Positions 18,880-43,889 of a DNA stretch of 64,000 nucleotides are shown in pieces (within the stretch, counting starts at the first letter, position 1; every line of letters starts with the position of its first letter). The notes beneath the pieces are model-generated. The model saw nothing but the letters and a program-made list of their open reading frames with translations. It was not told where the DNA came from and ran no database searches. Made by a program: the position numbers and the translations under genes. Source of the DNA: Gnetum montanum (taxonomy: Eukaryota; Plantae; Gnetophyta); assembly GCA_015680685.1 (NCBI GenBank), contig MNCI01001500.1:1-64000 (forward strand), read 5' to 3'.

Positions 18880-19163
18880 AGGCTTTTACAATATAGATGA
18901 GTTGTTGTAGTAGCTTGTTTAATAGTCTATTTGGATAGCTTTATTAGCTAGCTTTTTTATTAGCTTATTTGGATAGCTTGTTTGGGTATCAATCATCATC
19001 TATTTTAGCTCCTTCATCACCATATAGAGAAGCATTTTAGTTCACTATCAACACAAGATGCTTTTAGAAGTCGTGGTAGTGGCAAACATTCAATGGACAA
19101 AGAGCTTATGGAGAAATTGCATACCCTAGAACCCCCTACATTTCTAGATGAGGAGGATCCTAC
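18880..19163 (+). pseudogene. Chromovirus (Tekay-like) gag N-terminal fragment, interrupted by the LTR of B
   Basis: ELMEKLHTLEPPTFLDEEDPT matches the Tekay gag motif FxxxxPPxFxGxxDP and stops exactly at the LTR start at 19164. Confidence 0.55.
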
Positions 19164-19411
19164 TATAGCACTTGAAAAGTTTGATTGCTAGAAAAACCAA
19201 AAATCCTAGGTAGAGTAGTTTTAACCTTGGATCTAAAGGGCATTCAAGAAAAAGGATCTAAGATACCTTGGATGGCATTGTCAATCATCCAAGGACTTAG
19301 GAAGTGTTAACAGGGTAAAAAATTCAAAATAAAACTTATAAATCTACTTTAAAAAATGCAAAGAAATAAACTATGAATAAATTTGCACAAAAAATGAATT
19401 GTAAACTTTAT

Positions 19412-20269
19412 TGATGATGAACCATGATATTGCATTCGTGATATCGAGTACACAATATCGCATCCACGATATCGGGTATGAGATATCGGAGCCTACCATG
19501 CGATGTTGGATACCTGATATTGGGACCTACCTCCTTGCCTATAAATAAGAGGCATGCACACTTGGTTTTGTAATTAGATAGTTAGTCCCTTAGCCAAAAT
19601 CTTGCCCTTTCTCCCCTCCAGAGCTAGAATTATTTCTGTGTGCCCACAGTAGGAGTCATCAAGTGAACGGATCTTTGTTCGAGCATTCTGTACCTAAGCA
19701 CACTTTGTGTACGGAAATAAAGACAAACTTTATGATAAACCTTGCAACATCCAAAATAGATTAATTAGTGTTAATTGATGTTATTAAATGATTTCTTAGT
19801 TAATTAATGATTCTCTCTTACCCTACAACTCTCCTAAGTAAGAACACACAGTACGATCACTTCGAGCATGTGTGTAACACTTGGTAACCTAGTAACGATT
19901 AGCGTTTGGTAATCCTAGTAGTGTTGCGCTAGTTCAGGATGTGTACAACAAGTGAGAATGGATATGGTGTTAGGATTAGTTTAAATCTTAGTTAATTAGT
20001 AGTTAAGTTAAATTAGTTACTTAGTTATCTTTCTCTCCTCCCTTATTAGCAGCAGGACATAAAAACATAAAAGCTATAAAAATCATATGCATCAAGCTTA
20101 CTTAACCATACAATCGTGACATACAAGTAAGTTTGGGAAGACAGAAATCAACCAACCCATCCTTATTCCACAAGGGTGCATAAGCACTTAGTCCTTGGAA
20201 TTCGATCGGATTCTGCATGAAATGCTCGTATTCGTATGGTTGAGAGTAGGGGTACCTTGCCACTCATCA
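19412..20269 (+). mobile_element. Athila-like solo LTR inserted in the LTR of B
   Basis: TGATGA...TCATCA termini, GATATC repeats, and TATAAATA at ~19540. Its 3' end is homologous to the reverse complement of 51526-51600. Flanks tttat/attaa are not a clean TSD. Confidence 0.8.
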
Positions 20270-22491
20270 ATTAAGAATAATAAAATTTCCACAAAAGCAG
20301 AGTTTGAATGTGTATAAAATATGTGTTTAAATGCACAAGGAGTTGCTTAGATGATGCTTGAAGCCTATTGAAGCTAGCAAGTTGTGCTTTGCAATCAAAC
20401 TCATGATCCATATGCTTCCCAACCTCAATCACCAAAACGCCTTGGGGGGTTTTTAGATTAGATCTATGATGTTGATGATAAGAGGGGTAAAGGTGTTTAG
20501 CTTTTTGAAATTTTGGCACTATGTTGGAAGTCTTGAATGTCCAGTTTTTTGTCAAAATACTCCAAGATCTTTACAAAATTCCAAATGTCTTAAGTGATCA
20601 ATGTTACAAAGCTTGTCCAGTTGAAAAAGTGTGGAACCTATCTAAAGTTTTTGAAATTTGATCTTATAAGTCTCATGGTTGTTGGTTTTTGTGCTGAAAA
20701 TTTCTTCCATGATTACTGCTAGATTGGTATAATTTGTAAGTGTGTCAGATCATAATTTCCAATGTAGTTTTCCATTTATGTCAATTCTTGATATGCCTAG
20801 GCCACCAAAACCATGTTGAATACCATAAATAGTAAAAATACTTTTCCAAGTATGCTTGCTTCATCCATCTACACTAGCCTCATGGGAACAATGTTGCAAT
20901 TGTTAGAGAACATTCAAATTGCTAAAAGAACAAAACCGCCACCACTCCAATGCTAGATTTTGTTAAAAATTACAAACTCCATAACTTCAACATTAGCTTT
21001 GTTGCATCCACACTGAAAGTTATGGGAACTACACTATCCATTTCTGGGAAAATGAAAACCCAATAACCCCAACATTGGGTTTAGGTAGTTCCAACGTAGT
21101 TGAGGCTATGACCCATGTAAAACCCACAAAAATGACAAATTTGATAGTTCCCAAGGCATTTTCAACCTTCCCAAGCCTAAATATAGACATGATATGACTT
21201 TTTCTACTTGGGAAGTGAGTCTACAATAACTTATGAGGCATTTTTCAACTCTAAAAGTTCATGTATGTGAGATTGCAACTAATGTCCTACAAACCTTAGA
21301 ATTTTTACAATGAAAATCTAGCCTCAATTGTAGGGGTGAAGGTTCCAATTCCAAAAAGGTTACAATATGCATTTTTGTGTTGGTGTTTCATTGGTCCTTC
21401 TTTATTTATGTTTGAAGAATTAACTCAAGAGACATCAATAATGAATACAAAACACCACTCTTGGTTCATCACCAATATTTCCTTTTTATGTTTGATTATA
21501 TAGTGTCGAACCATACTAAAGAGTGCTTCTGATAATGGGATAAGGTTATAGCAAGGTGTTATAGGTTGAAGGGTATCTTTGGTCACAAGGAAGTGCTCAT
21601 AAGGTTAATAATGGATTCCAAATATTGACATCATAATTATGATTATGGTAGTGACATTATAGTTAATTGATGTAATCTCCATGCTTCGTGCTTCAAAGTG
21701 TTGATTACTTAGTAATGTTTTTGGGGAATCAACAACTCACTCCAAGGTTTATTTGGTCATTAGGCTTCTTCTTTTACTTGTTTTAAGCTACTGATTTATC
21801 TTTTGATATTCATAAACCTTTTAGCTTCTTGGCAATTTGCTTTCTCATTTTTTTTGTAGGGTGAAGACTTCATTAGGTTTCATTACTAAGGCTAGGTTTG
21901 ATTTGATTTTTCTATTGAATTTGATGTGTTACATTCAATGAACTTGATGGTAGAGCATGATGAAGAAAACCTCACATGGCCATAATGCATGAGTGTTAAA
22001 CATTGATCATTATTGTTGTTTAAGGCAAGGAAGGTCATAATTTGGCTATGGGACTCGACTTAAGGAATGGTAATGGAAATGATGTGAACCAAGCACTCTT
22101 GGTATGATAGAACAAGCTTACCAAATATTGTGCATCAAGGTCATGTGATGTCTTGCTGCCATGGTGAGTTACACCTTTGTAATGACCTCAGGCTTCATCC
22201 TACAACCACAACTCCAAGAGGATAAGAAAACAGGAAAAAGAAGACATGTTACAAGAGAGTGCATAGGGCCACATGAGACAACTAGCAAACTAGGTTAACA
22301 TAATTCAACATTGTTATAACATAGAGAGATTTTTGTAATGCACATCAGATTCACAAATCTTATAGTTCATTCATTATCCAAAATAAAGAGAGAGAGAGAC
22401 ATAGAGAGAGAGCATGTGTAGGCTCTCTTGTTATTTAGTGTAGTGGCTTTTGACATCAACTATTGATTTTGTACCTCTAAGGAAGATCATG

Positions 22492-25400
22492 TTAGATGTA
22501 ATAAGTCTTGATATAGGAATGGTTGACCAGGTTGGCCAATTTATTTTCATTTTTATCTACTACTTTGAAGACTTCATTGCCATAGGCATTGATGACCAAG
22601 AAAGGCCCTTCCTAGTTGGCTGAGAACTTTTTCACACTTATAAATAGCCTTAAGGACATAATTTCCTTTCTTGATCTTTTTTTTATTTAGGTCATGACGA
22701 TGTTGTTTCTTCTACCTCTTTTTGTACCATTTGATTTAAGCAAGCATCTATATCCACTACTCTTACATTGAGTCCAAGTTAATGGTACATAGCTCCTTGT
22801 TTTTCTCATTGTTGATGAAGTGTGATAGGGATGCCCTAAGTGATGAAACCTACAATTAAAGAGAAAAATATGTTGATATCCATAAATCAGGCTATATGGG
22901 ATTACATGAGTCGTAATTCGATAGGTAGTTCTATCAGCCTAAAGTATGTGGACAAGCTACTCATGCCACTTGCATATACTATTATTTAGCATTTTTAAGC
23001 AATTTTATAATATCCTTGTTGCTAGCTTCAACTTGAACATTGGCTTGAGGGTAGTATGGTGATGAGAAGGAATGCTTAATGCCTAAGTCCTAATAAAAGT
23101 CTTGCATTTCTTGGCCACTAAATTTTGATCTATTATCTATAACTATGCTCAAAAATATGCCAAAATGGACTACTATGTTGTCCAATATGAACCTATAGAA
23201 TTTTTAAGACATTGTTTCCCTTAGGGAAAAAAATTTAACCTACTTTGTAAAGTATTCAATTTCAATGATAATGAAGCTATGCCCTATGAATGACTTACAC
23301 ATTGTAGGTTCAATAATGTTAAGTTCCCACTATTGAAATGGCCACGTTTTCTAAGTAGTGTGTAACTCAATTGGTGGTATGTGTATCATGTTCCTATGCC
23401 ATTTATAGGTGTCACAAGTCTGAACCTTCTACAAGTAGTCACTTTCCATATAAGGATAGTAATAGCCTAGTCATCTAATTTTAGCGGCCATGGCTCTATG
23501 TCCTATATGCCTTCCACATACACCTTCATGAACTTGCTTAAGGACTATGTGGGCTTCATTGTTTCCCAAGCAAACCAATAATATGCCATCATAGGACCAT
23601 CAACATAATGTGTTTTTGGGTATAATGACATAATGCTTTGATCTTTTACATAAAATGTCCTTTTGAGAAGTAGTCAAGCCTTGTGGAGATTCACCATGCA
23701 TTAGCTAAAACTTCATATCTTTATACCACTCCTTTTGAGAAGTGGTGTTAACAAAAGCTATAGAGTCACCTTCAGTGTTTTGCGTGATGGGAATAGCATA
23801 TTTCATGGTTAAGGAAGATAACTTGCTAAACACATCGAGCATCACATGTAGGCTAAGGTCATAATGGCATCAACTAATGTTTTATTAGTTTGGGGTATAT
23901 ATTGGATACCAATATCCATAAATTATTGCATTAGTTTCCTACATAGGTCACAACAGGGTTGCAAATGTTTGGTTTTATAGGTGTAAACCTCTATTACTTG
24001 GTTAATCATAAGTTATAAATCATCCTTTATCATGAAGAATTTGATTCCTTGATCACAAGCTACCATCATTCCCCTAATCAATCCTTCATACTCCTCCATG
24101 TTATTGGTACATGGGAATTTAAAAAAGTAGGTAAAGGATTGGATTTCACCAAAAGGTGAGGTTATGATGGTAGTAGCACTAGTCCCATGGGTAGTTGAAG
24201 CTCTATCAAAGTGCATAATTGCATCATATTCCTAAAGTACTTTGCTAACAATGTTGACATGCTCATCAATAAATTCAATGTCAATGGCTACATGGTCTTC
24301 TACTAGAAAAATGATAAGTTATGTGGCTATAGCTTGACCTTTCGTTGAGGCTTGCGAGATGTAATGGAGATCAAACTTGATTCTTATGGCTTTCCAATAG
24401 GCTACATGGCTACTTTCATGGATCTTTGTCATCATGGATTTAAGCACATTGTACTTGTGAATGACAATGACTTGGCTTCTAAAGAGGTAGTGTCTCTCCT
24501 CTTCTTTAATGAGAAGACTAGCACTAGACAATACTGCTCCACTTCAGTGTATTGGGTTTCGTAGGTAATTAATGCATGACTTAAGTAGTATATGGGAAAC
24601 TTGCCTCCATCATCTCATTTTTGACAAACTAGAAAGATGATGGACATATCAAAGATACTAAGGTAGATGTAAAATGATTAATCCTTTTATGGTAGATAGA
24701 TAGTGGGTAGTTGTTCCAACTCCTCCTTAAGGCTTTCAAAGGCTTCTTGGCATCAATCCGTCCACTCATAGTAGACTCCTTTCTTAAGTAAGTGTTACAT
24801 GGGTTGTAATTTATTTGTAGGCCTAACAATGAACCTATGGATAAATTGTAATCTACCTTACATTTCCAAAATTTATTTAAGGTTATTTTGTGCTACCAAG
24901 TTTCATATAGCCTTAACATTATTAGGATCAACATGTATTCCTGCTTTAGATATTACAAATCCAAGCATCTTATCAGTTTTAACACCAAAGATACATTTCT
25001 TAGGGTTAAGCCTGGGTTAATATTTAAGGCATAATTTAAGCACAAGGTCAAGGTCATGTGCATGGTCATTGACCATTTTGAACTTAATGGCTATATCATC
25101 CATGTAGTCATTAAGCAATCCTAACATGTAATTACTAAAGGTATACTTCATGGCTCATTGATAAGTTGTGCTTACATTATTTAGACAAAAGGAAATCATG
25201 ATGTAACAAAAGGTTCTTCAAGGTGTCATGAAGGTCATACAAACTTGATGCTCCTAGTTAATCCTAACCTGGCTATATTCCAAGAATCCATCCATGAAGG
25301 ATAACAAGGCATGTCTAGCAATAGTATCGATAAGTTGGTCAATACTGGGAAAAGGGAAATCATCTTTGATACTTGTCTTATTCAAGTCCTGAAAATCAAT

Positions 25401-25979
25401 GTAGATACATATACTCCCATTTTTCTTATGGACTACCACTATGTTGGATACCCATTCCATGTAATCAATAGCTCAAATAAAACTAGCTTGATATAGTTTT
25501 GTGATTTCATTGCAAACTACCAAGGCTAAATCTAATCTAATCTTCCAATATTTTTGCTTAACTAGCTTGATACTAGGATCAAGTATAATGTTATGTTATG
25601 CTAGGAATGGATTAAGACCCAACATATCTTTATATGAATAAGAAAAGACCTTAATGTTGTCTTGGAGGAACTTGGTGATGTCTTGAGCTTGTTGAGGTTC
25701 TAGTGACGAACATAGTTTCAATGTTTTCTCCTCATTACTATGTGTCATAACAGGAAACTCAACTAGAGAGTCTTTGGTAATGTTTTCAATCTCAAGGTCA
25801 ATGGTTTTAACTAGCTTTACTAGCCACTCAAGAGGTTTCTCTATTGATGCTATGTGGTTGACAAAACTCTCAAGCTCAAAATCTAAATGATTAAGATTAA
25901 CAAATCATTGAACATCACCATAAGGTCTAGTTTGGCTCAAAGTTAAATTTATTTTCCTCTAGGTGTCCATACTCAAATC
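22492..25979 (-). pseudogene. pol: pol of element B: RT - RNase H - archaeal-type RNase H - integrase
   Basis: EWVSNIVVVHKKNG...IDFQDLNK...DDFPFPSIDQLID, YMDD (~25097-25108), aRH MHFDRAS...CTNNMEEYEGLIRG, integrase HEGVCGRH, WPFQ*W, SPYYPQAN, N*EGPF, ending YIKTYYI*. Many stops. Confidence 0.95.
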
Positions 25980-26949
25980 CTACATATCAACCATAAGCAC
26001 ATTAAGTAGCACCAAAATAATGTAAAATACTCTAGCAGTTATTCATGAATATGCCAAAACATGTTACAACAATGGTCAAACAAGATTCAAACAAGGTCAA
26101 TAATGGTTATAAGAGGTAAGTTAAAACAAATAGGGTGAAACAAAATCTAAATAATGTAAAATAAGTTGAACAAAAACTAAATGAGGTCAAGTATCAAACT
26201 TCATCTACTAAAGTCAAGCAAGGTCAACACATGGTCCATAGGGACCATAAAAGAAGAGGCAAGGTATGTAAGATGTACTAAAGGCCAAAAAGCATGAAAT
26301 AAGGACAATTAGATACCAAATGATAATCAAATGAGTCCGAATGATGCTCTAATGAGGCCAAACAATGATCTAGTGATGGTCAAGTACCATTAAATGATGT
26401 CAAACAAGGCTAAAACATGGTCAACAAAAATCATTAGGGATAGGATAAGGTAGATGGGGTAAACCCAAGGCCAACTAACATAAAATTAAGCCAAATTATT
26501 GACAAATGAGGCCAAATAAAGCCCAAATGATTATTTAATCCCATTATATGATGTTTTGGGGGTCAAACAAGGTCACGATGATGTTCAATGAGGTTAAGTG
26601 ATGTTAAATGAAGTTCACGAAGGTCAAAAAATGCCAAATGATAGGAACATTTGGGTGGAAGAAGGTCCAAACAATAAGAAAATGATAAAAATGAAGCCAA
26701 ATAACATCAAATGATAAGGAAATGAAGGTCATTAATGCATAACAAGGTCAAATCAAGTCAAAAGATAATGAAATAAGACCAAACCAATCAAGGTGAAAAA
26801 TATGGGGTAAAACATGATCAATACTAGTCAATTAGTATTACATTTGTCAAGTTTTAGCCCTTAAAAATTCATGGTGTAAGGCTATAGAGTTGGTGAAAAA
26901 TTTTGGGTACTTGGGAAGGCCATTTTGAGGTTGAATTTGGTTAGAAATT

Positions 26950-28930
26950 AGATCCCTTTTGGCAACTACATTGGAGCCACCCTGGGACTACACTAGCTAG
27001 CATGGCTCTAGCATGGCCTAGCATGGTTCCTAAAAAAATATGAGTACCTAGGTTTTTTATGGTTAGTTTTGGGGTTCTAATGGTCCAAATTGCTAGTTTA
27101 ATGGATTAGGAGTGAATATTTTCTAGCTTTTGTGTTAATTTGATCCTCTAGAAGGCACAAATGCTACCAAGAATTTCCAACTACACTAGGACAATGCTTG
27201 CTAGCATGGCCCCAACATAGCTCCATGGGAAAATGGGTTTCTAGCATTTAAATATTGGAATTTATGTCTTATCATCTTCCTAAGATGACACAAGAGCATT
27301 AGGGTTGCAAATCGATCATCTAAATGCCAAAATAGATTTCTAGATGTGAAATTTCAAACCATCCCCTTGCACTATGCTAGCTAGTGTAGTTGAGGATTCC
27401 CTTAGTGTGGATGGATAAAACTTGATGTATTTATGGTCAAAACATGATCAAACTATAGCTGGCTTTAGGGCTTCAATGTTCTAGGCTTTCCTAATTAGGT
27501 TTTAGACCAATTGAAGTACTATGATGCTAGCAAAAATATTCCAGAACCTCAACTACACTAAGGCCATGTTAGCTAGCATGTCTCTAGTCTTCTGCAATAT
27601 AGTTGCATCTAAATTTTCATTTTTGATAAGTTTTGATGCTAAATTAATCAAGTTCTCAAGTTCCTAGGGTCACTAATGCCCATGGCTAGGGTTTAGACAC
27701 AAAATTGTTAATTTTGATGATTATTCAAGTGTAGATATGGTCATCCCCCTAGACTACACTAGCCAATGTAGTCTCAGAATGGATGGGAGGAATATGATGT
27801 ATTTTAGCTATTTTCAACTCAGTTTCTAGGGTTTGGTGGTCTCTGATGGCTCCAGCAGAGATTTGGGGTTGGGATGGTACATCTAGGAGTCAATTTGACA
27901 TGTTTATGATCTATTTTTAAAGTTTTTCATGAGAACTACATTGCCTAGTGTAGTTAGGGGCTTTCCCAATGTAGTTTTGAGGTTGTAAGGTGTTTTGACT
28001 ATTTTTTATTTCATTGTTTTGTAGTTTAGGATTTTTAGAAACCCTAAAAAGGTGTGAAGGTTGGGATGTGTGACTTTCAAGATTACTTTTAGAATTTGGT
28101 TCTCAAACCTCAGCCAACTACATTAGGACTATGTTGGCCAACATAGTTGGAATGTCCACCATTATAGTTCCAATGTTAAAGTATATTTTGACCTACTTTT
28201 TCTTGGTTATTTAACATTTCAGGATGATCAAAGACTCTAGGCTGTATAAAGGTCATGATATGATACTTTGAAGGTTATTTAAGACTTTTAATAATCATAA
28301 GCCTACCAAATATGCTAGGTCTATGCTAGCCAACGTGGTTAAGATACCCCCCAATATGGTTCAACCAACATTTATGGTTTTTAGCACTTTTTGTTTGGTT
28401 TTAGAAAGTTCTAGAGCTACCAAAGGCTCTTAATAGGGTTTGAGATTTGGCATGGTCATTCCAAGGTTGATTGAAGGCTTCATTGGTGGTGTAAAGTACC
28501 ATCCCTCTTGGAACCATATTGGCTAGTGTAGTTGAGCTCTTGACCAATGTAGTTACCCAAAATAACTAATTTTGTCATGGGTTTCAACCTTCCTAGAAGT
28601 CTAGTGACTTCCAATGTCAACACTGGATTTCTAATTCTGGTATGAAGGGTTTTGACTTTAACATGTTCTGGATTGATGACTAGGAAGTAATATTTTGCAA
28701 TGATCAAGGCTTGGAATCCATTCCATGGAATTTTAGAGACTTAATCCCAACGTAGTTCTTGTATGAAGGTTTTAATCCTAGTGTATTAGGGTTTTTACTA
28801 GTTTATTTGGAAGGCATCTAGTGGGGCCCATTCATGTTTAAATTGTTAAAATAAATTAATTTTTCCACTAACCCATCATAGTTCCCATCTTCTAATTTTG
28901 AACATGGAGTTACGTTAGAGTAGTTTGGTG
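26950..28930. repeat. ~190-bp-period array of palindrome RACTAYRYTRGCYARYRTAGTY
   Basis: For example agactacactagccaatgtagtct (27751-27774). Further copies near 26985, 27195, 27370, 27562, 27933, 28125, 28320 and 28512. Confidence 0.85.
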
Positions 28931-29177
28931 TCTTGGAAATGGGGATTGGATTGAGAACATATAAATGTGGAAACAATTCCCATGTATCAATTTTACCAAA
29001 ATTCATTCTCATGTACCATTTCTAGAAGTAGTAAATAACACCAAAGCTATTTCATTAGTTCTACTTCAGATTTCATCTACTTGTAGCCTATCTTTACCAT
29101 TCTTCCCCTAAAGAACAACATAGTTGCAAGGGAGTTGGAGGAGGATTTGAAGAATTTTTACCATTTGTTGATCAAAG

Positions 29178-32100
29178 ATGTCTAAGAGGAGGATGAATAC
29201 AAGCAAGAATCCATCTTTTCAAGAGGTAGAAGCTATTACCAAAGGGCTTTCAAATCTGTCATGGCCTCTACTAAAAGAAGGATCCTCTAAAATGCCTACC
29301 AAGTACCCCCTCCTAGCGATTTCTTTACAATTTTTGGCCTAGAAATTAGGCATTTTATGTCATATAGGCTTGTTGTTTGAATAAATTTTTTTTTGTAAAA
29401 TTCCAACCCTGTATTTAGTTTATGGTTATGTTTTCATAGTGTTTTTTTTTTTTTTTTTTTTTTTTTTTTCCNTCCCTTAGGGCTTACCCATGCTAAGTTT
29501 TAAATTTTTTATCCAAGCCATTTTATGCATTTTCACCATTTTCTTCTTTAAAAAGTAGCATTAATTTTCAATTTTTTAATAAGAAATTGGAATGGAATTT
29601 TTTGTTTCTAGATCAATAGGATTGTTTTCTACTATTTACTAGTTGAACTAGTTATGAAATCACTGAATTCTAGTCTATAGTTAATTTTTTATGAATTTTT
29701 CCATGCGTTAGGGCATAGTGGAATTTTGGGTTTTTATTACTTTTACCTTGTTGAAACTAATAATGTTGGCACTAGAAAAATGTTTTTCTATCAACGTCCT
29801 AGCTTCCTAGGGATTCTTGGAACCATGTGGGAGGGTATGACACTTGTTTTGGAATTTTTGAAAAAACAATTTTGTATTTTTCTAGTGATCTAGTACAATC
29901 ATTTTTCTACAATTTGGGATTTTTGTAAGAGATTGAAGTGGTTTCGAGTTGTATGAATTTTCTTAAAGCCTCAAACTAGCATTAATGCCAAATTTTATAT
30001 ATGTGCAATGTTTATACTTCGAAAAAATGTTTTAGTAGAAAATTATCATTTTTTGGTTGGTGTTAACTACCATATACAATTGTAGTTTTAACTGTTGGAA
30101 CTACAAACCCCCTAAGTTTTATTAGCAATATTGGTCTATTTTTGGTATTTGTTAATGAATTATTTAGGATTCTACTAGTTATTTACATGTTATGTATTGA
30201 CTTCCAATATTTTTTTAGAATTTTTCAAAATTTTCAACTAGTCTCCCTAGAGTTTTTACTATAGCTAATTTCATTATAAATTAGGATTTCTACTTCAAAC
30301 TTTTTCAAATTCAATTTGAAATTTCATAGCTGTTGTTATGGGTTGTATTCTTGGTACAAGCTAATTCTCATGGTTTCAATTTTTTACTCAAATTTTTTGC
30401 AATTTTTATTTATGTTTTCACCATAAGATTGGCGTTAGTTTTAATGGGCAACTTGGTCTCTTTGTCTAATTTTTGGTTAAATTCTATTTTGGTTCTAAGT
30501 GTTGAACACTATGAATTTTGTTGTTTGGTTTAATGTGAAAATTTTGACATTATGTCTATAATTTTTTGGTTATTTAATGGTTATTAAAGTTTAGTTATGG
30601 TCATGCGAGGTCTTAATGGCCATTACTAGGTTATGCATGGCCTTCCCAAAATCCATCCTAGTAGTGATCAAGTTGGTCAGGCTCCTATGTTGCATCCACA
30701 CACCAAGGTCCAACATCCCACTTAGTAATATGATGTTGGATCAGGGCTCCCTTTAGTTTAGGCTTGGGGCCAAGGAGTTCCTAGCCTTCCTATTACAGAA
30801 CTTCAATGTGATGGTGTGGTCACACTTGGCTTTTGAAATAGCAGTTGCAATTATGCAAAGCTTACTATCCCACTCTGCTCACTTGATCATAAAGTTCTTA
30901 ATTAACAATCCTAATACTCATGTTGAGGGCAAATAATTTGATATCATATACACTAGGGGCACACATCAATTTTCCAAAGTCTATCCTTGAATTCATCTAG
31001 GGCAATGCCAACAACATGTTACTAGTTGGTCACCATGTCAACACATTGTTCCAGAACCTTCCTAGTACCATCTACTGTGTGGAAGGGTAAGTGTAACTTT
31101 AAGTTTTTTGTTTACTTTTTTGTTTCATTCGGCCACCTAGGTTTAATAATTTTTTTTGTGTTGGCATGCTTGCAGGTACTAGGTGAATGACCAAGGGTTG
31201 ATTAAGAGTAACTAGCTCTTGCCCTTAGCTCAAATAGCCTTGGAGGTCTTTTCCAAAAGCTTAGTAGTGAGGCTTGAAATGATGGAGTAGCTCAAGGGTG
31301 ACTTTGGCAAGTATTCCTCACACTATTCCTAGGCCTACCATAGGTGCTTGACCAATGAGATGGCTCATAGCTTGTGGGGTATCCTTGACTTAGGTGTATA
31401 GACATATATACCCCTTAGGGTTCCCATGTTGGCTTCTTCAAGCAAGTGAAGTAAGTATTTTTATTTCTATTTTGTTTTCTATTTCATCCAATTTTAAATT
31501 TTTCTAATCATGTAGTTATGTGGTTATTTACATATTAACTACTTAATTGTTTTATCGATGTGGTTATAAGTTTTTTTTTAATTTGTTATACTTGTTATAT
31601 TTTTGTCATTCATGGGGATACCTATGCCAAATCTAACGAGTTATTTTCATTGTGTTGTTAGGGCTATGCCATTATCTATCATAGCTATGATCACTTCAGG
31701 ATGTGCTTAGGAGACACTTTTCCTCATTTTTAATGAGGTGGATGTAGTGCAGCATTGGTTGGCTAGTTAAGCATACAAGGAAATTCAAGAAAGGATCACC
31801 ATTGTAGGTTTTATAGACTTGTAGATGGCTCCCATGTCAATTATTCCTACACCTAAGATGGTGAATGCCATTGACTCCTTTAACAAATAAGTGAAGAAAT
31901 TTTTCACTTGGGTTCATGGTGTGCCTATCACGTTGGGCCATCAATAAATATACCTTCAATGATCTCTTTGGCATCCCTTTTTAGGGAATGAAGGTTGCCA
32001 CCAACCTAGGGAAAGAGGTGGACAACTAGGAGGAGGTGGAAGAATGATTAAACACTTATCTTAGCCACTCACCAAGGATGCAAAATTTAACTAGGCTACT

Positions 32101-34300
32101 CATTTGGTTTCCAGGCTATTAGGGAAGATCCTGAAACTCTAGAAAAACCTTGGCACCAAATGCCACATACACTTTGCGTTTTTTGCAACGTATCTAAGGT
32201 GGTTTGTGAAGTTCTTAGTGGTGTAGAAGGTTGGATAATGGATAAGTCAAGTTCCATCCCAACTCTCTCAGTCTTGGGTAAAACATGTTTATCCAACCAT
32301 GCAAGCTCATAACCTACTAGAGGATGTTGGGAAATCACTACCTATTACCACTAATCATTTTAGTGGTATGTGTTGTCCTTCCCCTGACATCAAGGGGATG
32401 GAATCCTAAGTTGCATATGGAAATGTTTAAAAGTTCAAGGATTTATGTGCTAAAGCTAATGGGGTAGCTAGAATAAAACTAAAGAGTCCTATGGTTGAAA
32501 AGACAGCACTAGTTGTTAGGCATCCTAGGAAGAGAAGGCTCATTGTTAGACTTGGCTAGGTGCACCATGTGATTATAGGTATGCTCTACTTATGCTATTT
32601 TGTTTAAGTTATTTGGAAATTATGTTTTATGTTATATGTCCATGTTGTTTTTTTATTCTAGGAAAAATATGCTAAGAGGTTCTATGCTTTGTCTTTATTG
32701 TTCTTGTAGATAAACAACAAGAACTAGCGGCCCAAGTAGCAGCAACAAAGGCTAAATAAGGGTATCTAGAGGAGGAGGCATTACAATTACATGAGGATGA
32801 GTGGCTATCTAATTCCATATTGGATGACCTCAATGCTATATTTTATGATTCACAATTAGGTGAACCTCTCGTTATTATCCTAGATGAGCTTCCATGTACT
32901 TGTAAATTTTGTTGTATATGTTACATTTTGTAGTTTTATGTTTGAGCTTGATTAAATCATTATGCTATGATCATTCTTTTAGTAGCTTCTAAAACTCAAC
33001 CTAGTACTTTTGAGTCTATGTTTTTCATGAAACCATGGGTAGATGTTCTAGTCAAAATGGAGTTCATGTACAGGATGACCAAAGACATGATCAATCGATT
33101 ACAACAGATTGCTCCTAATGTTGGTAAGAACTTTAGCTTATTTTGCTTTTAATTGTTTATATTATTTATGTGTTTTTGTTTCATATGTATTATATAGATA
33201 TATGGTCTTAGTGGTTTGAAATTTTTCTTAGTTATTTTTATTATTTTTTATTTACATTGTTTTGTGTCTTTATGTTGGTTGTGTTACTTGCAGTGTCAAA
33301 GGTTGGATGGGATTCCAACCATGTCATTGAGATCAATGAAATTTCCAGTGGAACACTTGAAGTGAAAAATGTTCCACAAATTTTATATGAAAGTGCCACT
33401 AAATGTGCACTCTCATGTGCTAGAACCTTGTGGGAATGTCAATGTTCCAATGAGTTCCTATAGAACAAGTTGTAGCATTGGAGAGCAAAAAAAAAAAAGA
33501 AATAGCCTAAGAAGATTAGAGATCTCAAGGATTGTAAGGAGTTTGTGAAAGCCCAAGTGACTAATAGGGACTCCTTAAAAATAAAGATTAAATGAATGTG
33601 GTATTGGAATGCCATCCATGACAAAGTTGCACTTTCTAGAAGTAAGGGAAGTAGAAGCTTTAGATGGACTTGTTGGCTCGTAAGGCTAGGGAGTGGAGAG
33701 GCTATTTTACTTCGATCCTTGAATGGGGCCAAGCACAAAAGGACCACAAAAAAATATAACACTAAATGGGAGAGCTAGCTGAAGTGACTATAAGAGGAGT
33801 GGATCAAGAGGTGTAAGCTAGAGTTGTTCATGAAGGGAATTAATGCTAGAGATGCCTTCAAGTTGTTTGAAAGCTATCAGGTGATAGTTGATTCCCCAAC
33901 TCCTTAGGTCCCTACCACTTCCAGAGAGGTGACTACTACTACATTTTCATAGGATCCATCCACATGGACCAATGTTAATGAGAGCAACATCTTAACCAGT
34001 GTTAATCTTGGAAAAGTGCATTGGGCCCATAGAACTGAAGACAAAATTCTCCATTGTCTAGAGGTTGGTCTTCAGAACTTCCCTACAAAGGATACTGCTC
34101 TAGAATATTCCTAAGTTTGTTTTTTTTTTCTAATTAATTTCTTATATTTTATCTTGGTTCAATTTTTGGTTTGATTATGTTGGTTACTGATTAGATGTTT
34201 GTTGTTATGATTGGTATAGATACCAAGTGATAGTAGTAGTCTCGATGTTGATCACATTGGAGATACTCATATTGCCCCTTTAGTTGCATCTTAGTTCCAT
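29178..34300 (+). pseudogene. Antisense multi-exon accessory gene inside element B; tentative plant mobile domain (PMD)-like region plus C-terminal coiled coil
   Basis: TATAAA at ~28961 and ATG at 29178. Exon-like blocks separated by T-rich introns, mostly GT..AG: 29178-29302, ~30640-31086, 31176-31450, 31662-32578, 32710-32895, ~32986-33123, 33294-~34110 and 34220-~34293. Exon 4 reads IQERITIVGF...VNAIDSFNK*VKKF...INKYTFNDLFGIPF. The domain call is by eye only. Confidence 0.7.
29442..29469. repeat. Poly-T tract (28 nt) in intron 1 of the antisense gene
   Basis: Directly visible, with an ambiguous base at 29473. Confidence 0.95.
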
Positions 34301-36269
34301 CAGTTGGATCATGTATTTGGTTTATTTTTTTCATTAATTATGTTATGACTACTTCTAGTTAGTTTTTACTTGTAAGACAATTATTATTTTATGTTATTAC
34401 TACATAGTGTAGCTTTGGTTGTTGGACTTCTATTTATTTTTGTTGTTGTTGATTAAACTCTTGTCACATTATGTGACTATGGACGTTGGTTATGGATGTT
34501 TTGGATATCATATTTATTTATTATTTTTAAAATTTTTAATTTTTTTATACATTTTAGCATTTTTAGTTTTATGCATCTCATGTGTTTCATGTTTTGTTCA
34601 TGTTATGAGGCTACGTTAGGCTACAGTGGTTGAATCATGTAGTTATAAGGCAATACTCAACAAAGTTAAAATAAAAATTAACTAGGATAAAATGTAAACT
34701 AAAGTGTTAATGAAGATGAAACATAATAAATCATAAAAGGTGTTGTCAGTTTTAGACCATGACGAGCCTTTGTGTTTTACTAATTTTAGGCTATGGCAGG
34801 CCAAGACATTTTGCCAAGTTTAGACCATGGTGGGCCATTGTGTTTTGCTAGTTTTAGGCCTTAGCAGGCCTATATGTTAAAATAAAAATTTTTATAAGTT
34901 TTATATTTTAAAATATTTATAGATTTTTTGAGTTTTAAAATTTTTATGATACTTTCAGGTTTTACTTTTCAAAAATGATAGGGCATAAAAATGTAAAATG
35001 TAAATAAAAGTAAATTATAGGTTACATGCTAAATAAGGCTAAACCATGGTAAAATAAAGTAATGAAAAAATGATACATGCAAACAAATTTTAAATTATGA
35101 TAATAAAAAAAAGAGTAGGCCATATGGTTATGGTAATAGGCAAAGTGAATAGCAAACATATGTTCAATCATGCAAGTGTTTCCTAATCTTTAAAAGATTA
35201 GGAAAGTTGTAGGGTCTACATTATTTCTCATTTCTTTCACTAACCATGTCAAAAGGGGAGCTCTTCCCATGGTGCATTCATGGTTCCGTTATTGTCAGTT
35301 TCAGCATCTTCCACTCTATTGGGCCTCTAGACTTCATCATTGATAGTAGGAGTTTGTAACATCTAAAAATCTCAATTACTGGAAAACTAAAAATTTTAGT
35401 GAAATAGCTTTAACCCTAGATCCCAAGGACCTCCAAAAAATAAGCCTCAAGGTGCCCTAGATGGCTTATTAGATTACCCAAGGACTTAGAAAATGTAAAA
35501 TAGGGGTAGGAAAACAAGAAAAATGTAATACATATCTAGAAAATAAAAGCATGGAATAGGAAAAAAAATATGATCTAACTTGCACACAAAGAAAACTATA
35601 AAATTTATTTCAATAAAAATAATGAGGATCAAGAAATATGTACAAGGGGTGCATAAGGATGCAAGGAGGGGTTCACTTTGATGAGTGCTTAGAATCTATT
35701 GAAGTAGATAGCCTTGGATGCCACCATCATCTTCATGATTTGAATGCTCCACAACTCTTGAAACTATGAAACCTTGCTGTAATCCTCACAAAATTTGTAC
35801 CATTGGTGGTGCATGGGGTAAGATGTGTAGGGGTTTTGATCTACAAACAAGAGCCACACTAGGAATCTCAAAGCCCAAGTTGCTCAACATTGTTGCAAAA
35901 CCACACACAATCTGAAGGGGTAAAAGGGGTTACAATGGCTATGGGTTCCATGCTACAATTTTCTCTCAAAAGCCTTGTTCCTACAATTAATTTTTAAAGC
36001 TATGGGATTTAAAAATGATAGAACCTATAAATTCATGGAACCCTTTCAAGGTGCACAAGTTTGAATTATATAGGATGTATGGCCATGAATTTTGTTGCAA
36101 ATTTTCTACCTAATTGTTGACAAATTTCTATTATGTATAGGTGTTGCATGTGTCTATGTATGCTAAGTTTTGATACCTCCAAGGTACTAAAAGCATTTCA
36201 TTTACTAAAACCATTTTATGTATGGGAATTTTATCTATGTTGGGTCTTCCAATTACAATGCTTGGCCTG

Positions 36270-36535
36270 CAAGAGCCACATTGAGGTGTATGGGTAATAC
36301 TAGGATATAACACCCACGTTGGGGGGTATAACACCCACGTAGGAGCTATAGGAGCCAAGCTATACCCACACTAGAGCAATGCTAGATCCATGCTATAGTA
36401 ATGTTGGATCCATACTAGAGAAATGTTAGGGGTGCAATAGCCATGTTGGACCCATGCTAGAGTAATGCTAGGGGGTAGTAGTTATGCTAGGGGGATAATA
36501 GTTATACCTCCCTAATGCTAGGCATGGGTGATGTT
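36270..36535. repeat. Short tandem repeats in the LTR of C
   Basis: tataacacccacgt(t/a)gg twice and several atgctagag/atgctagggg units. Confidence 0.7.
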
Positions 36536-36836
36536 ACATATCCCCCCCACCACAGGGGTTTCTACCATAGCAAAGATTATACCCCCTACAAAACCCATCA
36601 AAATGCCAATTTTGATAGTCCAAAAGACATTTTTAACTCCTCTAAGTCCAAATATGGACATAATATAACTTTCTTCACTTATGGGTTGAGACTTTGACCA
36701 CTAATGAGGCATTTTTTTCATCCCCAAAAGATAAATTATGTTAAATTGCATTTCTTGGATTATAATCTTCACATTTTATAATGATGTTTTTAGCCTCAAA
36801 CTTCATGGGTTCAAGGTTACAATGCAAAAAGGCTAC

Positions 36837-38154
36837 TGTATTAACCTAAATCGTCGGTGTAAGGCTAGAAGGGAAACAGACACTGAGAGATCATCGGGTA
36901 TGCACAGCTAACCCTACCTTCACTTGAGGGCAAGCTATAAAAGGGAATGAAGGCAGAGTGTCTTGGATGGTCTGCACAAAAATCAACCAAGGACTTCCCT
37001 GAGCGTAAGCTACAACTAGCGTTGGGGTTATTGTAAACAAGATAAACAAGATGTAAACAGAATGAAAACAGTGACACAAAATGTAAACAGAGCGTACTGA
37101 ATTATAAATAAAGTGTAAAAAAAGCTATATTGTAAAAAAAATGTAAATATAACTGAACAATGTAAATGGAAGGCAATGAACTATATTGTATTGTTTAATA
37201 AAAAAGGTATGCACCGGTCAAAGTGTAGCTGCACGTGTGGATGGCAGTTCAAGCACTAAGCCTCGGGATGATGTCTAAAGTGATGTGATGAATGTGAGAA
37301 ATACTTGGATACTAATAGTTTGGTGTGCCAAGCACCAAAGGATTATAGGTTCTGTACTTTCTCAGAATTGCCAATGTCTCCAATTGCCCCCCAATTTTTT
37401 TTGCCTCCTAGTTTATGTGAATTGATAGGGTATTTATAGGGTTGGGCTAGGCTCAGGCACGAAATCTAAGAATGAAGTCAATGGCTATGAGATGAGAGGA
37501 AAGTAGATCTAGGGACATGTGTCCCATGGATAGTTGGCACGAGTTGGATGTGTGTTGGCAAGCTACATTCTTGACCAGTTACATTGCATTTTACAATTTA
37601 TGGGTTATTCAAGCCCATGAAAGTACATTTAATTTAGACCATGAGGGCTTGACATGCCCTCAAATGGGGATTTATAATGAAATGTACAACAAGAAAAATT
37701 TGACTGCTCGGCATGACTTGTAGTGTGACCTGTAGTATGACCTCCAAAACTTGCAATTTTCAGTTGAAATCTGGAATTTCTGAAGGCTGGGACCCATAGT
37801 TATCAATAGTGGACCCTGAGGATGACTTGCACCCTTGAAATCAAGTCATTTGGCTTAGTTTTGGGACTCTAAAAGTTGGTGACGCTGATCCTTACGCTGT
37901 GCAGCATCTAAAAAAGTGACCCCAGTGTACTTAGCCAAAACCAAATATTTTGAACCTGAAAATTTTGGTTCTAGATGCTGGAAGTTGGTGCAATCGCTTG
38001 TGAGCCCCAAGGGAACCTTGCTTGTTGAATCATGGGCCGTTAGGGGCTGTTTCGGAGGCCTCCAAGTTTGGTCACACTATACTCATGTTGGGCAGCAGCA
38101 TGACTTAGCTTGATTCTTGTCTAAAAGTGCTAGGCCAAAATTAGTGGTGTTTCA
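36837..38154 (-). repeat. 3' LTR of Y (1318 bp)
   Basis: Direct repeat of 43890-45349. About 12% mismatch in the first 200 bp counted by eye, mostly transitions. Confidence 0.95.
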
Positions 38155-38168
38155 TTGGCCCCTCTTTG
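38155..38168 (-). promoter_or_regulatory. Polypurine tract of Y
   Basis: The minus strand reads CAAAGAGGGGCCAA directly before the LTR TGAAACAC. Confidence 0.85.
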
Positions 38169-39324
38169 TTGACAACTAGAGGAATCTACCTAAGAGGCAT
38201 CGACAAAGAAATGCAAAACACCATGAGCAACAAAGCATCAAACATTAACTGTCGATCCTTAGGTGGGTGTCATCGCACCATTTTCAAAAGTACATGGGAT
38301 TGAGGGGATGTGGTTCAAGATGCAATGGATTGTAACTAAGGGTAGCTAGGAATTGATCAAGGGTGAAAATTGTTGTTGGAATTGTGAGAGAGGAATGCTC
38401 TCACATGAACAAGTTATGTCATTGGTCCTTGTCCAAGCCAGTGTTCAGTAGACTCAGAACCAAGACATAGGAGGTGTGTTCTTTGGAGAAACGGGACTCT
38501 TATAGAGTATTTGCGAGGCCCGTTGTAAACAGCCAAATCCATGTGATGATGTGTAACATGGTCTCTTTGAGACATGGTGTAACTTTTTTTCAAGACAATT
38601 ACCTTCTCGCCTGGGGCTTGTATGAGGATGGCCAATAGTCTTTTTTTTATGATGTCAACAAGGTCATGAAGACCTTTTCTGTGCATTTTTCTTTTTGACC
38701 TTTTTTTATTCTCTTTTTCTTTTCTTGTTTTCTTTTTTTTTTTGTCTTTTCCTTCTTATTTTATTGTTCTTTTTGAAAGAGCTTGCTTTTTGTGTTGTGC
38801 TTGTGTATGAGCACTTGCATTTTGCATCATGTACTAATTGTGTTTTGCGTTGCGACTGCTTAGGGAGTTATAGTGTGTAACAATGTATCAAGAGTTTTGA
38901 GGTGAGCAGAATCTATCAAGGGGATATAATTGGATAGGATAAGGGAGCATGATGGGGAATAGGGAATGTATCAGGAGTCAGGAATGTACTTATGAATGAA
39001 TTGATTAACCCAGTTGCGTGCGTCAGGAAAAATGTGATACCTTGTTGTCATGATGAAGTGCATCTATGCACAAATGCCTCAGAAGTGTCATCCTGCAAAC
39101 ACAACTCCAAGAAGACAAGAAAACCACAAATGAAACAGTCAGCTAAACACTTTAAATAAGGAGATGGATTCATTGCATGCAATTTTCAAAGCAAATAGAA
39201 TCTTGAACAGCATCAGTTTCATTAGGGCCCATGAGATGAATCATGCAACAAGTCTTTGTGGAACATGAACAGCTAATTGTAGCGACACATCTTTTCAAGT
39301 TTTTCCTAGTCATCGATGATGTCA

Positions 39325-39645
39325 CCAGTTTAGAGTCTTAGCAGACTGTTGTGGATTAGTTTCACGTCATAACACCTTGGACGGTGCCAGTTTAGCGTCA
39401 TTGCAGATGGTGCATTGCTTGTTTATAGTCATAGTGGACTGTGAAGAGGCAAACTAGTTTATAGTCTTAGTGGACTCTGGATACTAGTTTCATGTCATGG
39501 CAGATGGATGTAGCATTTTAGTGTCATACTGGATAGAGCTCTGTGGTATCAGTTTTAAGTCATGATCTAGGACTATTCTGTGGTATCAGTTTTAAGTCAT
39601 GATGCCAGGATTGTTCTGTGCCATTTTATAGTCATAGTGGACTAA
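39325..39645. repeat. Degenerate ~30-35-bp tandem array, about 10 copies, core AGTTTwrwGTCATrg
   Basis: Cores at ~39328, 39357, 39389, 39421, 39456, 39486, 39515, 39551, 39588 and 39623. Confidence 0.8.
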
Positions 39646-39953
39646 TGCTTACCTTGCTTGTGTAAAGTGTGATGCTGCATGCATGGTCATGTTACGTGCC
39701 TACGAGATCCTGCAAAAAATCAACTAGAAAAAAAACAACATCAAGCAATACCTACCGTACATAGAGTTAGAATGTATGAATGAAAGAATAGCAATGCAAA
39801 AAGTGATAGTTTTAGGCCGTTCTGGGCTATATGCTAGTTTAAGGCCTTTTCGGGCCATGTGTTTTTGTATTTTTATGTTTTTATATTTGATGTTTTTCAA
39901 AAGAAATGTGTAAACTAAGTTGACGAATGTGTAAACAAAGCAAAATTCGTGAT

Positions 39954-42900
39954 CTAAGTGAGTGGGAAAAATGTAAACGCATAGGCTAGTGCAATGTAAA
40001 CAAAAGTCAAAAATGCATGGCAAGTGGAGGCAAAGGGTAGGCAGGCACCCACCGCATTTTTGGCTAAGGGAAAGTCTTGGTCATGTAGTTGCCTCCTAAC
40101 TGGGCATGGATTAGGGAATGTGCAAGGCTTAGGATCCTCTGGGAAGCTGTCGACTTCAACCACTCATTCAGGTGTGTTAGCCTTAATCGTTGCATTGGTT
40201 GTCGTAGATGTACCATTAAGAAAATCTTCTTCCAAAACTTGCACCATGTCTATATCATGGATAGTCGAAGAGAAAACATTATCACCATGGATGATAACTT
40301 GACCACCTTCGTATGGAAGGTAGATTTCTTGATGGATGGGAGAGGAGATGGCCCTTAGTTGAGCTAGCCAAGACCTATCTAGAATCATGTTGAAACCTGG
40401 CATCTCCTCTATGACAGTGAAATCTGCTCTAGTGGGGAATTTCTCTCCCACTACAAAGGCTAAGTTAATTGTACCCTTGACTATGACATGTGATCCATTG
40501 AAGGATTTTAGACATGTGGTTTTGGTTGGCCTGATTTCATCTACCAGGCCTAGCTTGTCGATGACAGAGTACAGGACTACGTTCATTGCTACACCATCGT
40601 CAACATGCACTCTGCAGATGGTGCACTGCCCAACACAAATGCTAATGGATAATGGAGCTATAGTGACTTCCCCTCATTTGGGGTTAACTTTCACTGCATC
40701 ATCACGAAATATTAAGGTTGTTGAACCCAATTCTTGTGGTGTGGAAGGCAACATTGTTGCATGAATGGATGCCTCATTTGCAAGGATGTCCTCCATAAGA
40801 GGAATGGAGGCTAAGACTTGGGCCAATGCTTGGCAGTGAGCAGGTGAGGTCCTGACCATGTCATACAAACTAATCGTTGTGTTCTTCTATTTTAGCGCTT
40901 GTTTTACTTGGGCTAGTGCAGCTATGAAATCCTTGTCATTAGCCATTGTATTGGCTTTGACTTCTTCCATGAAGCTTGAGAGACAGACCTCTCGGGAGGG
41001 GGACTTAGGCTTGGTTTGCTTGGGGGTAGGGGCTCCAGTGTTCAGTTGTTGTTTGCTAGTTATGGCCTTTGCTTCGGCCATGGGAGTTGCGAGGTGCTCA
41101 TTCATCCTCTGGTGTTCCCATTTGGTGGGCTTACCTAGGTTGTTAGTGGGGTCAACCCTTGAAGGAGGAGGGATTGAGATGTTGCCCAGTATTGGGCTTC
41201 AGGTAGGTGAGGGGCCATCACGTTGTGGCACCTTGATGACAAAAGGTTGCTTAGCAGTTTGTGTTGTTGCGTCATGCTAGTTTAATGTCTTAGCAAATGA
41301 ATCATGCCAATTTAACATCTTAACGGATGAGCTGTGCCAGTTTAATATCTTAGTAGATGAACATTGTGGAGCCTTGACCACAAAGGATGTTGTGGATGCC
41401 TGGGGTGGCACCTTGATAACAAAGGGAGGCCTCTTTTTTGTGGGTGGGGGAATCCTTGCCTTGCTGGGAGGCACATGGATCACAAAAGGATTTTTCACAG
41501 GTTTGGGTTTGCCACCTATGTTAATTGAGTTTATGACATAGGAGGCATCGTCTATGTTGGATTGACTTGCCATGTCAATCACTAGTTGACCTTGTTCTAT
41601 CATTCCCTGCAGGTCATCTTGCAAGGCACGACAGTTGTCTGTACTGTGACCAACCATTTGATGGTAATGACAGTATTGGTCCAATTTAAAATGTTGTGGT
41701 ACTGGGGGCTCATTTGGTACTGCTAAGGTGGGGTTCCTTAGTAGCTTGCAGTACTTATCATGTTTTTGGCGGGTAATCTCTGACACGTGTTTGTGTTGGA
41801 TTTTCCCGGATTTCAAGAGTTTCTCCAATAGTTTAGAGGGTTACATCGGTAATGGTGTATACTTTGAGCAATCCTTGCACTGAAAGTTGGGCTTTGGAGT
41901 GGCCCCTACTAATGTAGGTGAGTTGGCACCAAAGTTAATAGCTTTGTTAGCTGGGGCTTTAGGTTGCTTAGCTATTGAGCCCCATTTGGTTGCTTTTGTG
42001 ATTGTAGCTATTGTTGCCTTAGTTGTGTTTTGCTTGCGAGTATGTTGGTTTTTGTAGGCCACATAAGTTGGGTTATTACTTGATTGTGCTGCCTCTTCTA
42101 TGTCTTTAATTTGTACAAATTCCTAACTCAAAGTATGGGGTTTTAGATAATAGAGCTTTGATTTAATGAAGTCATTTATGGTTGCCTTAAGGATGGTAAG
42201 TAGATACGTTTTAGGAATAGGTTCATAAAGTTCATTCAGGGCAATGCTCCATCTTTGGATAAATTTCTATGCTGGCTCTAAAGGCGCTTGTTTAATTTGA
42301 ATCAAGCTATCTAACGTGGCTTTAGGTTTTAGATTGTATTTGAAATGAGTGACAAACTGGTGTAAAAAATCTTCCAAAGAAGATATAGAGCTACGGGGTA
42401 AGGCTCGGTACCAGTCTAAGGATCTTCCTATTAAGGACATAGCAAACATATGCAAAATTACATGGGGCCATGCCTGAACAAAAATACTTTCAGTTCGGAA
42501 TGTCACTAGGTGGATATTTGGGTCTCCCTCTCCATTGTACTTGGTTAGCTAAGGTAATGAGACTCCCTTTGGCAAGGTTAAGGGTGGAACTGAGGGATCA
42601 ATTGGGTCATCTTGATAGAAATCTAGTACTTTGACTTCCTCATTATTCAAAGTTTTAAGGCGTTTTAATTCCTTTGCCAAGGAGTGTATCATTTTTTGTG
42701 TGTCTACCCATTCTTGGGCGATAGGCAAACCAATGGATTGAGTGAATTGTGGATGATAATGATTTAATTGTTGCATTGTTTGTGAAAAGAGAGGTTGTTG
42801 GGATAACATTTGTTGTGGTGGAATGGTATTTGGGACTGAGACCACCGGTGGAACCCACTGCCCAACCACAGGTTGTGAGGTAACATCCTAAATGTGTTGG

Positions 42901-43561
42901 GTTGGAATAATCAATGGTGTTCCATGGATGTGGAAGCTGGTATGACTGATGACATTCCAATTACTTGAGTTCGAAAGATTGACCCTGCATTAGTTTGGGG
43001 AGGGAGTTGTTGGGACTGTACTTGTTGAGGAATGATGGAAGTGGACTCATCAGAATGAAAATTATTGGGTACAGAGAAGATAGGAATGGAAGTAGATACC
43101 TTTTGTCAGGAAATTGATGCTCGAGTGTTTGTGAATGAAGGAGGAAGCACAGTTTCTTCCAAGAAAGGGTGGAATAATGGGTTTGTGTAGGCATGGGGAC
43201 TAACAGTATGGTAGGAATCTCCATGTTTAGATTAGGTTGCAAAATCATCTTCCTCATCTTGAGGCTCTATTGGCAGTAGTTGTAAGGCTTGACTTCTAAC
43301 CATAAGAAGCTGGGATATGAGTTTATGATGGTGTTTAGACAATGAGATTATATCAAATGCTGAAGGGATGAACTCACGACCTCCTTTGTGGACAAGTTCA
43401 TAGTCTCGTTTCACTTCCCTTTCCACACGATCGATAGGCAAGTTGGCTTGGATTTTTACACAAATGAAGTTATATTGTTCAAGGCATAGTGTGGCTCACT
43501 TTGGTTGGATTATGGTATCAAACATGTTAGAAATTGATGTAGAAGGTTGATCTGGATTCAT
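39954..43561 (-). pseudogene. gag: gag-protease polyprotein of Y (~1200 codons, several stops, one frameshift)
   Basis: Eight ORF-track pieces from 42869 to 39954 share one frame. They contain KYNGEGDPNIHL, MFAMSLIGRSLDWYRALPRSSISS, the Tat-type knuckle YCHYHQMVGHSTDNC and protease VHVDDGVAMNV...FNMILDRSWL. Confidence 0.95.
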
Positions 43562-43884: not shown

Positions 43885-43889
43885 AAAAC

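Follow-up and report, generated by a model that had tools for sequence, protein, structure and literature searches.

Ogre retrotransposons of plants have gag-protease parted from pol by a spliceable intron (PMC4408406). Their extra open reading frames (ORFs) are either 5' and forward or 3' and reverse and mostly encode a plant mobile domain (PMD), and NIF is not among the domains listed in the available part of that survey (PMC6317226). A tRNA-Arg primer is used by 89% of them (PMC6317226; PMC4408406). Antisense ORFs are placed 3' of pol in the available portions of four accounts (PMC4408406, PMC7264820, PMC11963269, PMC4093653), and gene23 of the Grande element is transcribed from its own promoter (PMC7264820). 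Here we describe a window, that is the whole stretch of 64,000 nucleotides at the start of contig MNCI01001500.1 of Gnetum montanum (assembly GCA_015680685.1), in which four related minus-strand long terminal repeat (LTR) elements, A, B, C and D, were resolved by self-comparison and sequence inspection. The dead element B carries, in a spacer of about 9.2 kb between the tail of its gag-protease frame and its pol, a cassette with a spliced gene on the opposite strand.

As in the Ogre elements, to the extent of their available descriptions, gag-protease is here set apart from reverse transcriptase, RNase H, additional RNase H and integrase (RT-RH-aRH-INT) by a non-coding stretch, and long LTRs, a 5-bp target duplication (in C) and pol-less relatives are also found. 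A difference lies in the spacer: that of B is 9.2 kb long and holds a gene between protease and RT, and that of A measures 3.6 kb. The antisense genes of Retand, Grande (gene23), RIRE2 and pvRetro13 are likewise on the opposite strand, with their own internal promoter, beside repeat arrays, family-specific and of unknown function, but in the available text they are found between pol and the 3' LTR, their products are Transposase_28, SMC-like or PMD proteins, and they are described without mention of introns (PMC7264820, PMC11963269, PMC4093653). Unlike these, the gene of B lies between protease and RT, has at least five introns and starts with a NIF-like domain. An orchid Tat element with an AlkB-type N6-methyladenosine (m6A) demethylase is likewise a Tat-clade element with a host-type enzyme domain as cargo; according to the available part of its description the enzyme is another one, gag and pol form one ORF and demethylase activity was shown (PMC9289625). 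The open-access literature searched contains no description of a gene between protease and RT, or of a NIF domain in an LTR element. Moreover the surveys compared put extra ORFs 5' or 3' of the polyprotein in their available parts; the first-pass annotation of this DNA had not recognised the placement from described families. The gene of B is a variant of the known antisense extra ORFs, in a slot absent from the surveys compared.

The explanation that we prefer, with a probability of roughly 0.55, is that this is an accessory gene that moved with a Tat subfamily, inside the spacer of what is now a dead element. It is favoured by decay equal to that of pol, by the lack of terminal inverted repeats (TIRs) and of a depth peak at the cassette borders, by other copies that keep the introns, and by the motif array and TATA-like site that A has in the corresponding slot. 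In addition, extra antisense ORFs transcribed from a promoter of their own are a typical trait of Tat in the available portions of two accounts, which provides a precedent for an element-borne gene, though those ORFs lie 3' of pol (PMC7264820; PMC4408406).

The antisense gene and its protein

The antisense gene is real, and its exon-intron structure, the order of the parts around it and its decay are established. On the plus strand, between the gag-protease tail and the pol acceptor, there are six exons (30,595-34,115), with five GT-AG introns of 89, 211, 131, 87 and 170 nt between them; the introns are T-rich (51-58% T vs 26-31% in the exons). If the frames with the fewest stops are taken, phase is kept across exon junctions 4-5, 5-6 and 6-7, and junctions 2-3 and 3-4 are in phase given one frameshift each in exon 2 and exon 3. 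At least eight exons had been annotated at first; the two further 5' candidates do not join exon 2 in phase, and the firm count is therefore six. The TATA that had been annotated with them was found again as a TATA-like site at 28,960.

The placement of the gene, also proposed in the first pass, is supported by an anchor on either side. A peptide encoded at 35,167-35,217 (minus strand) aligns to the end of the gag-protease frame of C (amino acids 1144-1163 of 1220, past the protease; p=0.006 in one of the three frames), and the gag-protease frame of A closes with a stretch that by eye is similar to this peptide. At the DNA level the tails of B and C showed no significant match (p=0.20). On the other side the acceptor-like site is common to A, B and D.

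The assignment of element B to the Ty3/gypsy Tat clade, already made in the first pass, is based on its pol sequence. The additional (archaeal-type) RNase H was located at 24,495-23,845, where two proteins carrying PF13456 (P0003 and P0009) align by tblastn. The best matches of the RT, which are Tat-type pols, are 37-46% identical to it, and nine of the top ten carry PF13456 (38 matches among 1,845 candidates). None of the five metagenome loci of P0003 had a homolog of the cassette, and among viral contigs no relative was found. In A, B and C the gag-protease frame closes at a stop before the spacer, separate from RT-RH-aRH-INT, which is an Ogre-type layout. Nevertheless this order of pol alone does not prove Ogre, because Tat clusters of yew, cypress and Ginkgo and of gnetophyte, hornwort and lycophyte origin also have it in the available part of the report, where neither the word intron nor the word antisense appears (PMC13468544). 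A quick RT tree (38 rows, one of 39 having been dropped as too short, no labelled references) left B on a long branch that arises from an open fork.

Gene and pol have decayed to the same extent. In the best frames there are 31 stops in 921 exon codons (the last 50 nt of exon 3 excluded from the count) vs 14 in 411 codons of the RT-RH part of B pol, and this equal density indicates that the two probably stayed intact up to a similar point in time.

The domain at the start of the gene was absent from the first-pass account, and its likely identity was obtained here from Pfam and ESM Atlas. Among seven exon frames searched with Pfam exon 2 alone gave a match, below the cut-off, to NIF (PF03031). 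With a stop-free piece of 59 amino acids of the same exon, all 30 matches obtained from ESM Atlas were NIF clusters (best 0.94, recognition 3241), and phmmer returned no NIF members from the PDB or from 1.8 billion proteins. The shifted frame of exon 2 presumably carries the NIF-like pattern on into exon 3, judged against the C-terminal pattern of NIF. Exons 2-3 are likely to encode a domain similar to the FCP1/NIF phosphatases. The catalytic motifs of FCP1/SCP, DxDx(T/V) and a second aspartate motif, were unrecognisable at the expected places in this decayed copy.

Exons 4-7 had no relative in Pfam, phmmer, word-seeded, ESM Atlas or PDB searches, which given the decay is weak evidence. In particular phmmer with exons 2-4, introns read through, gave no match at E<=0.001, word-seeded protein searches gave none among 37 candidates for exon 2 and none among 511 for exon 7, and PDB sequence searches with the exon translations gave chance matches only. 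A piece of 60 amino acids from exon 7 reached at best 0.81 in ESM Atlas, and the single-sequence AlphaFold model of exon 4 had a mean predicted local distance difference test (pLDDT) score of 42. No PMD was present in the seven exon frames scanned. By eye exons 4-7 look like proteins of ULP1 type or of the second gene of CACTA elements, a likeness that was supported by no tool.

A NIF-like domain together with ordinary plant-type introns would also fit an origin from the host, the gene being a captured or former FCP1/NIF family member with a single locus or a few. However, the DNA runs contain many diverged copies at 80-90% identity, the exons have lost most of their CpG (observed/expected 0.08) and three protein searches found no intact relative, and we regard such an origin as very improbable.

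Probable carriage by the element and rival origins

Reads were mapped at 80% on positions 23,500-34,400, a stretch that ends before the last kb of the spacer and the gag-protease tail, and the depths obtained do not equal copy number. DNA runs X1 and X6 cover all 30 bins of this stretch. Their summed depth is 115-580 in the array, promoter and first intron, 370-2,500 in the exon bins, 900-1,750 in the acceptor-side repeats and 15,000-48,000 in pol. Four of the 16 pieces listed, out of over 93,000, extend across an entire intron and have at least 31 bases on each side, at 82-85% identity, and this means that the gene is multi-copy and that other copies keep the introns. In run X6 single contigs with short sides jump from near intron 2 to near exon 7 (31,091-33,299; 31,167-33,494), hinting at gene variants without exons 3-6.

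Two RNA runs gave 622 and 81 mapped reads, nearly all partial and less than 90% alike (about 2% and 26% of the runs were read). In run X14 oligo-dT RNA reads from CpG-rich, more intact relatives of the Tat RT match the RT of B at 25,195-25,388, and related elements therefore appear to be transcribed in the organism from which that run comes.

The slot that holds the gene was also compared in sister elements. The motif TAGTGTA(G/T)T, which was picked after being seen in the sequence, occurs 15 times in the window vs 1.64 expected, eight times upstream of the antisense TATA of B and four times in the same slot of A. Between A and B, which are about 61% alike at the pol stub of A, significant matches are confined to the two ends of the spacer, in the right order, and to this array. 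At the DNA level A 13,100-13,450 gave one hint of B exon 1 (p=0.012, anchored at the TATA) and one of B intron 4/exon 5 (p=0.005), which point to different places and were drawn from many windows (37 in one comparison). A first-exon-like piece of A scored no better than shuffles at the protein level. In D a single short array-like match remains after the N gap.

Several observations weigh against carriage by the element. The first-pass annotation had the same cassette recurring in A and D, and this could not be upheld: when the exons were searched by tblastn in the remainder of the window there was no real match (best E=0.022), no exon homologs were established in A or D, A matches at its spacer ends and array, and D is cut by the gap. 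Its wider claim that the cassette is part of the element thus keeps the equal stop density, the intron-keeping copies and the array of A, and loses the recurrence of the gene. It had also counted pol-bearing copies with only a short intron as a sign to the contrary, and what was found comes close to this. The spacer of C is short, and D is possibly a short-spacer form, because the 550 bases before its gap already hold the motif located on the gag side in A and B (scores against the null maximum of 101.5 vs 74 for A, 86.5 vs 75 for the right end of B and 88 vs 84 for its left end). Pol depth is at least ten times that of most exon bins, so that most pol relatives at 80% lack the cassette at 80%, either because it marks a minority subfamily or because it diverged faster. 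No piece linking the gene to pol or to gag-protease was present among those listed, the longest of which had about 450 nt on the stretch. The NIF match of exon 2 (E=0.0019, 18.3 bits) is under the cut-off of 21.8. No splice donor common to the gag sides of A, B and C is visible, and the word intron for the spacer is therefore taken over from Ogre. Neither was an RNA splice joint present among the 15 entries listed, in the small part of the runs that was read and with the gag side outside the mapping. With no donor, no joint and an RT tree that leaves B in an open fork, the labels Ogre and intron of the first pass can be used only tentatively. Finally, B has no gag, primer-binding site or 5' end of its own in the window and an LTR abuts the gag-protease tail, so that B may be recombinant.

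This last point would suit a different account, in which recombination or deletion between the tandem elements D, B and A, or the assembly itself, produced the order of gag-protease tail, gene and pol in B, and the gene belongs to another slot or element. The internal deletion of pol that is found in both A and D and the N gap that interrupts D could be read in the same way. Nevertheless both ends of the B spacer match those of the A spacer in the right order, the tail and acceptor of B are located as in a normal element and both DNA runs cover every bin, and we consider this account improbable.

A more serious rival sees in the cassette the decayed remains of a non-autonomous DNA transposon (CACTA-like, or MULE- or Helitron-like) that made a single jump into the short spacer of B and owes its introns and copies to transposition at the DNA level. 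Multi-exon spliced accessory genes are normal in CACTA and MULE elements, and the array in two orientations resembles subterminal binding-site arrays. Moreover the window is full of nested insertions, the spacer is short in C and possibly in D, units of the 34-bp repeat flank the cassette on both sides and exon depth is far under that of pol; the NIF-like domain is a further reason to take an origin from a DNA transposon seriously. The terminal inverted repeats of CACTA (En/Spm) elements have the pattern CACTA...TAGTG. No such ends were found at the cassette borders with up to two mismatches allowed, although decay could hide them, and none of the 25 longest of 272 inverted pairs brackets the cassette. 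The absence of TIRs or LTRs of its own, on which the reading of the first pass depended, is thereby supported. Depth shows no peak at the borders (about 520 and 320-550) and rises in the exon bins to 2,000-2,500. Furthermore the array is one-sided, being confined to the promoter side, and is seen again in the corresponding slot of the diverged A. The gene is as decayed as pol, a match that would be expected of a nested element only if it had inserted at about the same time, and no transposase, TnpD or TnpA family domain was present in the seven exon frames, the other spacer frames being outside the scan. We regard an insertion of this kind as the main alternative, though the less probable one.

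Layout of the window and its other elements

The window is AT-rich and strongly depleted in CpG (observed/expected 0.15), and contains nested, decayed LTR elements. The coordinates of the features are given in Table 1.

Table 1. Features of element B, its antisense gene and the related elements
Feature	Position	Strand	Remarks
Spacer of A (3.6 kb)	11745..15340		between gag-protease frame and pol stub; four TAGTGTATT motifs 12,269-13,066; TATA-like site 13,122
3' LTR of element B	19150..21390	-	begins TGAAACACC; unrelated insertion at about 19,420-20,300 inside; from sequence and motif positions
Decayed Tat pol of B: RT, RH, additional RH, integrase	22495..25979	-	Pfam RVT_1, RT_RNaseH_2, rve, Integrase_H2C2
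Acceptor-like site with branch-point-like stretch	25980..26005	-	site 25,979/25,980; common to A, B and D by three-way alignment; putative use in splicing
Repeat-rich acceptor-side part of spacer	26006..26890	.	homologous in A and D
TAGTGTA(G/T)T motif array, eight copies	26987..28787	.	both orientations, two in spaced palindromes; upstream of antisense TATA
Putative TATA-like box of antisense gene	28960..28966	+
Candidate first coding exon	29178..29302	+	ATG, stop-free; not validated by phase
Candidate 24-nt mini-exon	29811..29834	+	splice-site look only
Exon 2	30595..31086	+	NIF/FCP1-like domain (Pfam and ESM Atlas); frameshift near 30,960
Exon 3	31176..31450	+	likely end of NIF-like domain; probable frameshift near 3' end; phase fit to shifted frame of exon 2
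Exon 4	31662..32578	+	about 305 codons; no recognised family
Exon 5	32710..32895	+	1 stop in 61 codons
Exon 6	32983..33123	+	0 stops in 46 codons
Exon 7, last exon	33294..34115	+	about 273 codons; no recognised family
34-bp tandem repeat, gag side of spacer	34750..34857	.	related motif in A, C and D
Remnant tail of B gag-protease frame	35164..35340	-	stop near 35,164
LTR	35340..36835	-	3' LTR of D, possibly also 5' LTR of B; resumes at 45,350-45,379 past nested C
Element C	36836..45349	-	gag-protease only (Pfam Retrotrans_gag); short spacer; 5-bp target duplication with one mismatch

The LTRs of all four elements open with TGAAACACC after a purine tract. The 3' LTR of B and the LTR at 35,340-36,835 are 67% identical over 1,312 columns; the latter stretch was also considered as the gag of B, which is ruled out as it is LTR sequence. 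C is the youngest of the four, with LTRs 89-91% alike, and is nested inside this same LTR. Its primer-binding site at 43,871-43,887 looks like one for tRNA-Asn, which would be unusual for Ogre-like elements. Past gag-protease, the internal region of C at 39,090-39,720 has a 37-bp tandem repeat together with one donor-like and two acceptor-like sites, and C possibly has a spliced, pol-less transcript of its own.

In A the gag-protease frame (about 18,800-15,340) is followed by the spacer of 3.6 kb and a pol stub, and in D there are a pol stub and a spacer interrupted by the N gap at about 47,050-47,146. Between 9,300 and 47,050 D, B and A stand head to tail in one orientation, each LTR nearly adjoining the next gag-protease part. 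Their junctions resemble an old tandem array with shared LTRs, and no clear primer site is left at either junction. The internal deletion common to A and D joins the start of pol to the 3' region (10,986-11,778 and 45,742-46,540, 64% alike). This deletion suggests an old non-autonomous subfamily, and C a different pol-less form.

Several other features were seen in the window. Past the N gap, at 47,260-48,070, lies a stretch that resembles a leader, is C-rich on the minus strand and contains a TATA-like run; it is probably the 5' region of another element rather than the cassette of D. Inverted, facing copies of another long element, about 65% alike, occupy 52,661-58,097 and 58,592-63,941. A solo-LTR-like insertion rich in GATATC-type repeats is present twice, at 19,420-20,300, inside the 3' LTR of B, and at about 51,500-52,400. 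A 180-bp tandem repeat of about three copies lies at 2,980-3,590, and plus-strand remnants of a copia-type RNase H and a gypsy integrase were seen by eye at 49,400-50,150 and 5,600-6,700.

Proposed workings and significance

If the gene moved with the element, as we prefer to think, unspliced RNA would give Gag-protease and be copied, and pol would be made, by analogy with Ogre, from an RNA whose splicing uses the acceptor at 25,979. Transcription of the accessory gene would run in the opposite direction from an internal promoter formed by the motif array and the TATA. Its introns would survive retrotransposition because they are antisense on the copied RNA, and the antisense transcript, lying inside the spliced-out part, would not pair with the pol message. 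The gene may derive from an insertion made long ago, when the spacer was still short, and its likeliest source is a DNA transposon whose accessory gene it was and whose ends have since been lost.

A protein with a NIF-like domain may be in contact with phosphorylated proteins of the nucleus, for example the tail of polymerase II. The protein may thus have been a nuclear regulator of the transcription or silencing of its own element, and the domain may have acted as a phospho-peptide binder rather than an enzyme, given the unrecognisable aspartate motifs of the B copy. A bolder idea, which we put forward tentatively and regard as unlikely, is that the protease-RT intron could serve as a cargo bay with an antisense unit driven by the array promoter, related elements carrying different or trimmed cargo (none in C, 3.6 kb in A, 9.2 kb in B). 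The cargo of B would then be a spliced FCP1/SCP-type phosphatase of the polymerase II tail derived from a DNA transposon, or a dead mimic of one, tuning the transcription, splicing or silencing of the element.

What the antisense extra ORFs of plant LTR retrotransposons do is not settled, and most of them encode unrecognisable proteins. Should the cassette be merely a nested insertion, the finding would be an ordinary one. If the gene came from a DNA transposon, a retrotransposon would have domesticated the accessory gene of another element, an origin for which no support was found among the known antisense ORFs (PMC7264820). A gene borne by the family with a recognisable phosphatase-like domain would, if true, give a testable hypothesis for what such ORFs do.

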